Part shown: positions 11,316-13,003 of the stretch, in pieces | Position numbering within the stretch: the stretch's first letter is position 1 | Layout: each line of letters begins with the position of its first letter | From: a bacterium | GTDB lineage: Bacteria > Patescibacteriota > Saccharimonadia > Saccharimonadales > SZUA-47 | Length of the DNA: 64,000 nt | Assembly: GCA_009923445.1 (NCBI GenBank) | Contig: RFTN01000002.1 | Span: forward strand, 38,436 to 102,435 | Reading direction: 5' to 3' | The notes under the pieces: generated by a model | Databases searched by the model: none | The model's input: the letters and a program-made list of their open reading frames with translations, nothing else | Told to the model about the DNA's origin: nothing | Position numbers and translations under genes: made by a program

Positions 11316-12707
11316 TTATTTTTTATCCTCTTTGACTTCTTCAATACCACCACGCATATAAAAAGCACTTTCGGGCTTGTCGTCATGCTTGCCGTCTAAA
11401 ATCTCACTAAATCCAGCAATTGTATCTGCCAGCGAAACATATTTACCAGGTTTGCCTACAAACACTTCTGCAACGTGGAAAGGCTGTGTCAAAAAGCGCT
11501 GAATACGCCTTGCACGCGATACGGTTAATTTATCTTCGTCGCTTAGTTCTTCCATACCCAAAATAGCTATAATGTCTTGCAAGTCTTTGTAGCGCTGCAA
11601 AATACGCTGTACCTCGCGGGCGACACGGTAGTGCTCTTCGCCAACAATCTCGGGGTCTAAAATAGTCGAGCTTGAGTCGAGCGGGTCAACTGCAGGGTAC
11701 AAACCAAGCTCTGTTAAGCCACGGCTAAGTACAATCGTAGAGTCAAGGTGAGCGAATGTGGTGGCAGGAGCAGGATCAGTAAGGTCGTCGGCGGGTACAA
11801 ATACAGCCTGTACGCTGGTTATAGAGCCCTTACGAGTAGTTGTAATACGCTCTTGCAGCTGACCCATTTCTTGTGCAAGGTTTGGCTGGTAACCTACAGC
11901 ACTCGGCAAACGGCCAAGTAGGGCAGACACCTCTGAACCAGCTTGAGTAAACCTAAATATATTATCGATAAACAGCAGTACGTCTTTACCGCTGTCACGG
12001 AAGCCTTCGGCGATAGTTAGACCACTTAGCGCTACACGCAAACGGGCGCCCGGGGGTTCATTCATTTGCCCAAAAACAAGACTGGTTTTGTCAATAACGC
12101 CGCTATCTTCCATTTCGTGGTATAGGTCATTACCCTCACGCGTGCGTTCGCCTACGCCAGCAAAAACGCTATAGCCGCTGTGGAATTTTGCAATGTTGTT
12201 TATAAGCTCTTGAATAAGCACCGTTTTACCCACACCAGCACCACCAAATAGACCAACTTTACCACCACGGGTAATTGGCGCAATAAGGTCAATAACTTTA
12301 ATACCTGTTTCTAAAATTTCGACCGCGCCTGATTGATCGGTGAAGTCAGGTGCTTCTCGGTGAATAGGGGCTTTGTTTTTAAATGTGCCACCTTTATTGT
12401 CGATAGGCTCGCCAATAACGTTAAACATACGGCCTAGGGTTTCTTCGCCAATAGGTACACTAATTGGGGCACCGGTATCAACAATTGATGTGCCACGCTC
12501 TAAGCCATCTGTTGCACCGAGCGCAATGGCGCGTACACTCGATTCACTTAAATGTTGAGCTACCTCAAAAAGTAACTTCTCGCCGTTTAGCTCAGTTTCG
12601 AGTGCGTTATTTATGCTAGGCAAGTGGCCCTCGCTAAATTCTACATCTACGACCACGCCAACAATTTGGCTAATTTTTCCTGTTTTTGTCGGTGTTGCTG
12701 TTGCCAT
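11316..12707 (-). CDS. atpD: F1 ATP synthase subunit beta
   Basis: Walker [56 protein letters not shown]. Confidence 0.95.
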
Positions 12708-13003
12708 TAGTTTCCTCCATTAGCGGCTTGGCGTATCTTGTGCAATTTAACGATTGCATCCGCTCCTACGCATCCTAGTTCAAATTCTTCTACTGTTTCA
12801 CACACTTCTGGTTCTTGTTCGTGAAAGTATGCTACCAAACCTTCTAGACTCTCATCAGCTACTTCGTCAATTATTTTTAGTTCAACTTCTGACAGTAAGA
12901 TACCTTGAGGTGTTTGCGGTGTGTAGTCTTCAGCTTCAACGTGCCCCTCGACTACTGCCGCTACTATGTGATCTACTGACGCTTTCATTGCAATATCTGT
13001 CAT
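12707..13003 (-). CDS. hypothetical acidic 98-aa protein embedded between atpG and atpD
   Basis: It has its own AGGAG SD (13015..13011) 7 nt before ATG 13003. Its TAA stop overlaps the atpD ATG (TAATG at 12709..12705). The atpD GGAGG SD (12718..12714) lies inside it. By my count it has 21 Asp/Glu against 5 Lys/Arg. Confidence 0.65.

Follow-up and report, generated by a model that had tools for sequence, protein, structure and literature searches.

The atp operon is among the most conserved gene arrangements of bacteria, and to our knowledge the junction between the genes for the gamma and beta subunits, atpG and atpD, is a short spacer in the well-studied ones. Small, largely helical proteins that bind F1 are familiar as IF1, the Paracoccus zeta subunit, cyanobacterial AtpTheta, the C-terminal helices of epsilon, and Atp11 and Atp12; as far as we know, the genes for zeta, IF1, and AtpTheta lie elsewhere than between those two genes. 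Phage morons and hitch-hiker genes are small cargo carried between conserved genes and transcribed with the host, with presence/absence polymorphism, turnover, and lateral exchange as their marks, and immunity and antitoxin proteins are small and acidic. The subject here is a gene of 98 amino acids (aa), called orf98, which lies between atpG and atpD in a 64,000-nucleotide (nt) stretch of a Saccharimonadales genome (GenBank assembly GCA_009923445.1, contig RFTN01000002.1, positions 38,436 to 102,435). This whole stretch is referred to as the window, and positions are those of the window unless another locus is named. The junction that orf98 occupies (written atpG|atpD, and likewise for other gene pairs) belongs to a wider pattern, in which the F1 junctions of the operon are a phylum-wide hot spot of fast-turnover, mostly acidic orphan open reading frames (ORFs).

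The closest described case is in the cultivated Candidatus Southlakia epibionticum ML1, where SEML1_0356, a hypothetical protein of 160 aa, is encoded between gamma (SEML1_0355) and beta (SEML1_0357) and carries a fold annotation as nucleoside 2-deoxyribosyltransferase / DUF4406-like (PMC10633639 supplement). The gene overlaps both neighbors and was non-essential in transposon sequencing (Tn-seq; Wang et al. 2023, PMC10633639), and in this organism the ATP synthase is itself non-essential (PMC10633639). SEML1_0356 is listed in the gene tables of that paper and is not discussed in it (PMC10633639). Literature searches on genes inserted in atp operons, and on the atp operons of Saccharibacteria, found no description of such an insertion, which agrees with a preliminary description of the window, made from its letters alone, that knew of none.

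Position and coding character of orf98

The orf98 coding sequence occupies 12707..13003 on the minus strand and encodes a protein identical to NCBI hypothetical protein EB118_01675 / NBX97959.1, with an isoelectric point (pI) of 4.2. It is preceded by its own Shine-Dalgarno (SD) sequence, AGGAG at 13011..13015, with a 7-nt spacer to the ATG (13003..13001), and an untranslated spacer of 28 nt (13004..13031) separates the atpG stop from the orf98 start; the 324-nt gap between atpG and atpD is filled entirely by this ORF. At the other end, the orf98 TAA (12709..12707) and the atpD ATG (12707..12705) form a TAATG stop/start overlap (12705..12709), and the atpD SD, GGAGG at 12714..12718, lies within orf98 codons 95-97 (Asn-Gly-Gly). 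The overlap is predicted to couple the translation of orf98 to that of atpD. The protein has 21 acidic residues (6 Asp and 15 Glu) against 5 basic ones (4 Lys and 1 Arg). The coordinates, the spacing of the AGGAG, the TAATG overlap, the embedded GGAGG, and the charge count had all been given in the preliminary description, and all hold. The minus strand of the atpG|atpD junction contains no promoter-like or terminator-like sites, and for that reason orf98 is probably transcribed together with the rest of the operon.

An ORF of this length is not what the composition of the gap would give, since 0 of 5000 dinucleotide-preserving shuffles of it yield one of at least 98 codons. The G+C content at the three codon positions (GC1/GC2/GC3 = 0.68/0.31/0.29) has a coding-type periodicity, as in the adjoining genes, with GC3 lower than the 0.39-0.40 of atpA, atpG, and atpD. 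Compared with its homologue at locus L001, orf98 has 10/10/20 substitutions at codon positions 1/2/3 and a ratio of nonsynonymous to synonymous substitutions per site (dN/dS) of 0.38, which lies significantly below 1 by Fisher's test (p = 0.007); these substitutions are read as moderate purifying selection on the protein. Independent assemblies in the NCBI, ENA, and Logan collections yield the identical protein, so that orf98 is no assembly artefact. An antisense ORF of 83 aa (12754-13005, plus strand) was considered and rejected as the shadow of a GAA/GAG-rich sense frame; it has neither SD nor coupling, and is 58 aa in L001.

The orf98 family and its loci

Homologues were sought in a word-indexed collection of 5.8 billion proteins, by an exhaustive HMMER search of 1.84 billion representatives, and by a profile search. 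Beyond the query, 4 were found, none of them annotated, and the whole family is 5 clusters: P0001, P0002 (100 aa, 78% identity to orf98), P0003 (101 aa, 40%), P0004 (103 aa, 38%), and P0006 (112 aa, 38%). A further match, P0005 (LysM repeats, E = 3.9 × 10−4), was judged spurious. The members are acidic proteins of 98-112 aa with the motifs ES-x-EGL-x-x-Y, TV-[ED]-EF, and ADA, and with a C-terminal NGG that is invariant because the atpD SD is read in frame there. At identities of 37 to 78%, the 5 have 22 invariant columns, which include the three motifs. Every member (5/5) comes from Saccharibacteria and lies between atpG and atpD, abutting atpD, with the reading frame and a TAATG or ATGA overlap kept and with an SD (AAGGAG or GAGGAG) 6-9 nt upstream. 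There are no orf98 paralogues within the 64-kb window.

The closest public loci to the window are all metagenome-assembled genomes (MAGs) of Candidatus Saccharibacteria / Saccharimonadales. Whether the ORF stays intact in relatives, a point raised in the preliminary description, has a divided answer. It is intact at L001, L086-L089/L092, L090, and L091; L006 and L007, which share a branch with the window and L090 and whose operons are intact, lack it. On a tree of atpA+atpG+atpD the family is patchy, with members in the window, its sister L090, and, at a greater distance, L086. Since close relatives with intact operons do without it, orf98 is to be regarded as an accessory gene and not as part of the operon core. 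Whether the junction is empty in relatives also varies: L007 has a spacer of 55 nt, L006 has four unrelated ORFs in the same place, and 42 of the 80 genomes surveyed below have at least 150 nt there. In L007 (5871-5928) there is a 10-codon mini-ORF (ATGACA...; MTYTNSEEKK) with an orf98-like start and the same TAATG overlap with atpD, perhaps the scar of a deletion or else a proto-ORF.

Some junctions hold an orf98 homologue together with other ORFs. At L001, the closest of the relatives that carry orf98, an unrelated ORF of 134 aa (74-478), with no Pfam match, lies between atpG and the homologue and overlaps the atpG stop (ATGA), and at L091 two unrelated ORFs (90 and 63 aa) are found in that position. 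These extra ORFs are always on the atpG side of the homologue, never between it and atpD. Judged on its sequence features, orf98 is a real, selected, and dispensable gene with a predicted coupling to atpD.

Divergence of orf98 and its neighbors

The L001 locus is of interest for how differently its genes have diverged from those of the window. The two orf98 alleles have a dS of 0.30 with 78% aa identity, whereas the first 192 codons of atpD have a dS of 2.2 with 90.6% aa identity and the last 24 codons of atpG a dS of 1.27 with 100%. The synonymous change in orf98 differs from that in atpD at p = 3 × 10−10. In the comparison with L090, atpD has 95.7% aa identity and orf98 40%, with an orf98 dS of 2.05, so the synonymous sites of orf98 are not intrinsically constrained. 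Between the window and L001, high nucleotide identity extends as one block from the orf98 SD to about 23 nt inside atpD. The simplest reading of these values is a recent exchange or replacement of an orf98 allele between lineages. Experiments have shown Saccharibacteria to be naturally competent and to carry out homologous recombination (PMC10633639), and natural transformation would be the likely route of exchange.

The same comparison bears on the idea of a structured RNA element, which was rejected: orf98 synonymous sites are saturated between the window and L090, and an Rfam search of 10000-19000 finds nothing in the junction, the sole match (mir-84, E = 0.13) being on the other strand, within atpD.

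A survey of atp operon junctions in Saccharibacteria

To place orf98 among other junction contents, 80 Saccharibacteria operons were compared, namely the window lineage, L001, L091, 74 species representatives, and three further orf98-family loci. Species representatives were counted where both genes flanking the junction could be placed in the genome scan, and gaps of at least 150 nt were counted at each junction. Such gaps are present at atpG|atpD in 52% of the operons (42/80), with lengths of up to 1218 nt, at atpD|atpC in 23%, and at atpA|atpG in 22%. The remaining junctions have such gaps in 6% (atpB|E), 1% (each of atpE|F, atpF|H, and atpH|A), and 0% (atpI|B). In nearly half of the genomes the atpG|atpD spacer is 8-55 nt. 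No F1 junction is occupied in 25 of 68 genomes, and all three are in 4 genomes.

Occupied gaps hold 1-4 ORFs on the same strand as the operon genes, tightly packed and mostly overlapping their neighbors, and open frames cover 96% of the gaps in the sense direction versus 73% in antisense (p = 1 × 10−13). The junction ORFs have a median pI of 4.6, and ORFs of matched size from the window one of 7.8 (p = 1 × 10−9). Those next to atpD have a median length of 100 aa, with pI 4.1-5.0 in 38 of 42. Clustering with BLAST and jackhmmer gives 9 small families and about 70 singletons, and each of the families (9/9) is confined to one junction type. When the 91 junction ORFs of at least 50 aa are searched, 90 have no match in Pfam, PADLOC, or PHROG, and 23S_rRNA_IVP, in one ORF, is the sole Pfam family at E ≤ 0.001. 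The atpD|atpC junction of L015 (7671-8084) encodes a bAvd / 23S-rRNA-IVS four-helix-bundle protein (PF05635, E = 1.3 × 10−35). A gene similar to it comes after atpD on the 2952-nt contig that carries P0006 (gene at 2494-2865).

A common origin of the junction ORFs was also considered. An hmmsearch with the orf98-family profile against the junction ORFs (97 kept) finds no relatives. In hhalign the orf98 family gives no signal with either of two families of about 97 aa at the same position; a weak hint links two families of about 97 aa other than that of orf98 (E = 0.0011, probability 21%).

Two side observations concern other contents of the junctions. In L046 a repeat of about 88 nt, with tandem GAGTCAC heptamers and inverted-repeat potential, occurs in both atpA|atpG and atpD|atpC (1289-1376 and 4160-4247), so small repeat elements also target these junctions. 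In L086 there are ORFs in F0 junctions, at 1951-2115 (54 aa, atpB|atpE) and 2376-2516 (46 aa, atpE|atpF), which may be spurious.

Searches for a known family, fold, or mobile element

Searches of Pfam with orf98 give nothing below E = 0.1, and NCBIfam has no match for any of the 5 family members. A sequence profile search of the Protein Data Bank (PDB) has as its best match a designed protein (E = 0.0096), none of whose matched stretches passes individually, and neither PADLOC nor PHROGs has a match to orf98. AlphaFold2 with a 2-sequence alignment gives a model with a predicted local distance difference test (pLDDT) score of 49.5. With a 5-sequence alignment the mean pLDDT is 63.5, and the model is a helical hairpin (residues 2-26 and 32-61, pLDDT about 75) followed by two weaker short helices. 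The modeled protein is probably all-helical. Foldseek of the model against the PDB returns generic coiled coils alone, at E > 2, and gives no functional lead. The earlier characterization of orf98 as an orphan gene embedded between atpG and atpD is supported by the shuffles, the dN/dS, and this absence of a known family.

Several known kinds of element were considered and set aside. A phage- or plasmid-borne anti-defense gene or moron is not supported, as IMG/VR, the INPHARED phages, the PLSDB plasmids, and PHROGs contain no relatives, and neither is an ATP-synthase subunit or accessory protein known from Pfam, NCBIfam, or the PDB, as orf98 has no significant family or chain match there. A toxin-antitoxin or toxin-immunity pair is contradicted by the neighbors of the family, which are atpG and atpD at every locus, and by the lack of a PADLOC match. 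An integron or transposon cassette was rejected because there are no meaningful direct or inverted repeats around orf98 and no integrase or transposase is called in the L002 locus of about 20 kb. A free-standing homing endonuclease was rejected because orf98 has no Pfam domain, whether HNH, GIY-YIG, or LAGLIDADG.

The rest of the operon

All genes of an F-type atp operon are present on the minus strand of the window, labeled from its own Pfam matches and from those on identical public contigs. From its 5' end the genes are an atpI-like gene (17891-18238), atpB (17061-17894), atpE (16781-17005), atpF (16227-16757), atpH for delta (15826-16227), atpA (14257-15822), atpG for F1 gamma (13032-13904; 290 aa, PF00231, E = 1.5 × 10−85), atpD for F1 beta (11316-12707; 463 aa), and atpC (10879-11301). 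The atpA|atpG junction is also occupied, as the preliminary description had it, by orf119 (13897-14256, minus strand), which overlaps the atpG start by 8 nt (ATGGCTAG). The encoded protein is acidic, with a pI of 4.1, 4 Trp, and 3 Cys. Among 5.8 billion proteins it matches only itself, it has no Pfam match, and it is a species-specific orphan.

A functional link between orf98 and orf119 had been proposed, with their co-occurrence as a check, and the comparison does not support it. orf119 has no homologue but itself in that collection, and the three orf98-family loci with a readable atpA|atpG junction (L086, L087, and L090) have no ORF in it, with gaps of 70, about 70, and 7 nt. The other suggestion, a link of the insertions to the truncated delta, is not supported either. 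Delta is short across the Saccharibacteria compared (median 134 aa, range 124-138), and matches positions 55-170 of 172 in the OSCP model, so that an N-terminal part of the canonical domain is missing. Its length is about 134 aa both where the atpG|atpD junction is occupied (n = 34) and where it is empty (n = 31), and the lengths of gamma and epsilon do not differ between occupied and empty genomes either.

Beyond atpC, a UbiA-family gene (PF01040; 9984-10853, minus strand) adjoins the operon. At L090 (6815-10670), genes matching COX4_pro, COX3, and COX1 come after the UbiA gene, so the clade appears to own a terminal oxidase, which would set it apart from the oral Saccharibacteria, which are fermentative. 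For the same organism there is a second assembly (L004, GCA_010031135.1) in which, at 7553-8747, atpA is called as 349 aa with an uncalled stretch after it; this short call may be an assembly error or a frameshift.

What orf98 may be

The reading we prefer, and to which we give about an even chance, is that orf98 would be a dispensable, small, acidic cargo gene lodged in the atpG|atpD junction of the Saccharibacteria atp operon. It is the best reading of the dispensability of the gene, of the turnover of the junction, of its unrelated occupants elsewhere (bAvd and deoxyribosyltransferase-like), and of the discordance between the orf98 and atpD alleles. The sequence features suggest that orf98 is translated from its own SD, and ribosomes ending at its stop could reinitiate on atpD, whose SD is inside the last orf98 codons. 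The junction would serve as a permissive, constitutively expressed, and recombination-accessible landing pad, with contents that are replaced or exchanged between lineages, and the product would be a stoichiometric binder or neutralizer of some partner and not a core part of the ATP synthase.

A number of points weigh against orf98 as cargo. It has no relatives in IMG/VR, the INPHARED phages, the PLSDB plasmids, or PHROGs, and no partner, toxin, integrase, or flanking repeats were found at its locus. The family is seen only beside atpD, where free mobile cargo might be expected elsewhere too. The case for lateral exchange comes from one 1.4-kb contig (L001), and the exchanged tract ends about 20-45 nt from the borders of orf98, which long-flank homologous recombination does not predict. 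Furthermore, that only F1 junctions form the hot spot, and that the atpD-proximal ORFs share their size and acidity, could equally mean a role in F1.

Such a role is unlikely in our estimate, but it has the most to be said for it among the alternatives. The ORFs of about 100 aa upstream of atpD would in that case be one ancient, fast-evolving gene, and the product would bind F1 beta, as an Atp11-like assembly chaperone or as an IF1-, zeta-, or AtpTheta-like inhibitor or regulator, with the coupling scaling the product to beta. The constant adjacency and coupling of the orf98 family to atpD, with extra ORFs on the atpG side only, is what this would look like, and so are the lack of a hot spot outside the F1 junctions, the narrow length and pI of the atpD-proximal ORFs, and the weak hhalign hint between two families other than that of orf98. 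Even the lack of similarity between occupants can be accommodated, because the dN of orf98 exceeds that of atpD about 14-fold (0.56 vs 0.04) and orthologues would soon be unrecognizable. What is harder to accommodate is that 48% of genomes have an empty junction, the close relative L007 among them, and that some occupants of the same junctions are clearly unrelated proteins. The profile-profile comparison of the orf98 family with the two other same-position families is also silent, the allele discordance points to replacement and not to co-evolution with beta, and the lengths of delta, gamma, and epsilon are indifferent to occupancy. The broader form of the claim, in which the atpD-proximal ORFs of about half of the Saccharibacteria are one ancient gene for a phylum-specific F1 beta partner (an assembly factor or activity regulator), we consider quite improbable.

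If the orf98 product is left out of consideration, the ORF could be a translated spacer acting in cis, in which translation of orf98 sets the ribosome flow into atpD and raises beta over gamma, and the protein is irrelevant and merely harmless, being soluble and acidic. The architecture suits this: there is a strong SD for orf98, the atpD SD is inside the ORF with the stop/start overlap kept in all members, the identity of the ORF varies freely by lineage while this architecture is kept, and the L007 mini-ORF retains the same overlap. We nevertheless find it distinctly doubtful, given that nearly half of the genomes cope with the short spacers described above and that the 2-4 ORFs found in some junctions are unnecessary for coupling. 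A pure translational-spacer role is disfavored by the amino-acid constraint (dN/dS 0.38, p = 0.007, with motifs kept at 38-40% identity), and a pure leader cistron, for which the SD and overlap are present, was rejected because the sequence is not neutral by those same measures. That orf98 is a recently born or decaying ORF without function, translated if at all only through its location, would fit the lack of homologues outside a narrow clade, the moderate to low AlphaFold2 confidence, and a GC3 below that of the core atp genes, but is very unlikely when frame, SD, and coupling are preserved across lineages with saturated synonymous sites, when dN/dS is significantly below 1, and when the conserved residues of the five members fall in specific motifs.

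Significance

As a gene, orf98 is a modest finding; the junction hot spot that it reveals is apparently undescribed. The Saccharibacteria (TM7) are a poorly understood phylum of ultra-small epibionts, and in them atpG|atpD is a recurrent slot for mostly acidic orphan genes, with families that are under selection and yet turn over and are exchanged between lineages. It is a defined and easily recognized locus at which to follow the birth and spread of genes in reduced genomes, and since the slot is occupied in the cultivated and genetically tractable S. epibionticum (SEML1_0356), the question is open to experiment. Any action of the products on F1 would make them new regulators of the ATP synthase; without it, the junction would be a natural expression platform for variable cargo. 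Should they turn out to be one ancient partner of F1 beta, a bacterial F-type ATP synthase would have a diversifying component that had gone unrecognized, with a possible tie to life as an epibiont.

Comparison with known systems

Among described accessory genes, AtpI/AtpZ (UncI; PF09527) resembles orf98 in being small and co-transcribed with the atp operon, and the window has one, the atpI-like gene named above. AtpI is a widely conserved membrane protein encoded at the 5' end of the operon, whereas orf98 is soluble and acidic by its sequence, is placed between genes of F1 in a few lineages, and gave no match in sequence searches. The F1 inhibitors and assembly proteins are closer in kind, small and helical, and are a conceivable model for a protein coupled to beta. 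They have no sequence or fold similarity to orf98, and IF1, zeta, and AtpTheta are conserved within their own clades, in contrast to the junction ORFs, which are hypervariable and missing from many genomes.

In its manner of carriage orf98 resembles morons and hitch-hiker genes, and also immunity and antitoxin proteins, as small acidic cargo riding a host transcription unit. It differs from these in that its carrier is a cellular housekeeping operon and not a prophage, and in having no promoter or terminator of its own, no cognate toxin adjacent, no match to a defense system, and no phage or plasmid relatives.

The nearest comparison by position is SEML1_0356. Going by the table description, on which the comparison depends, it is a deoxyribosyltransferase-like protein of 160 aa and orf98 a helical protein of 98 aa without such a signal. 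In both, the same gamma|beta junction is occupied, and in SEML1_0356 this is so in a Saccharibacterium that has been brought into culture.

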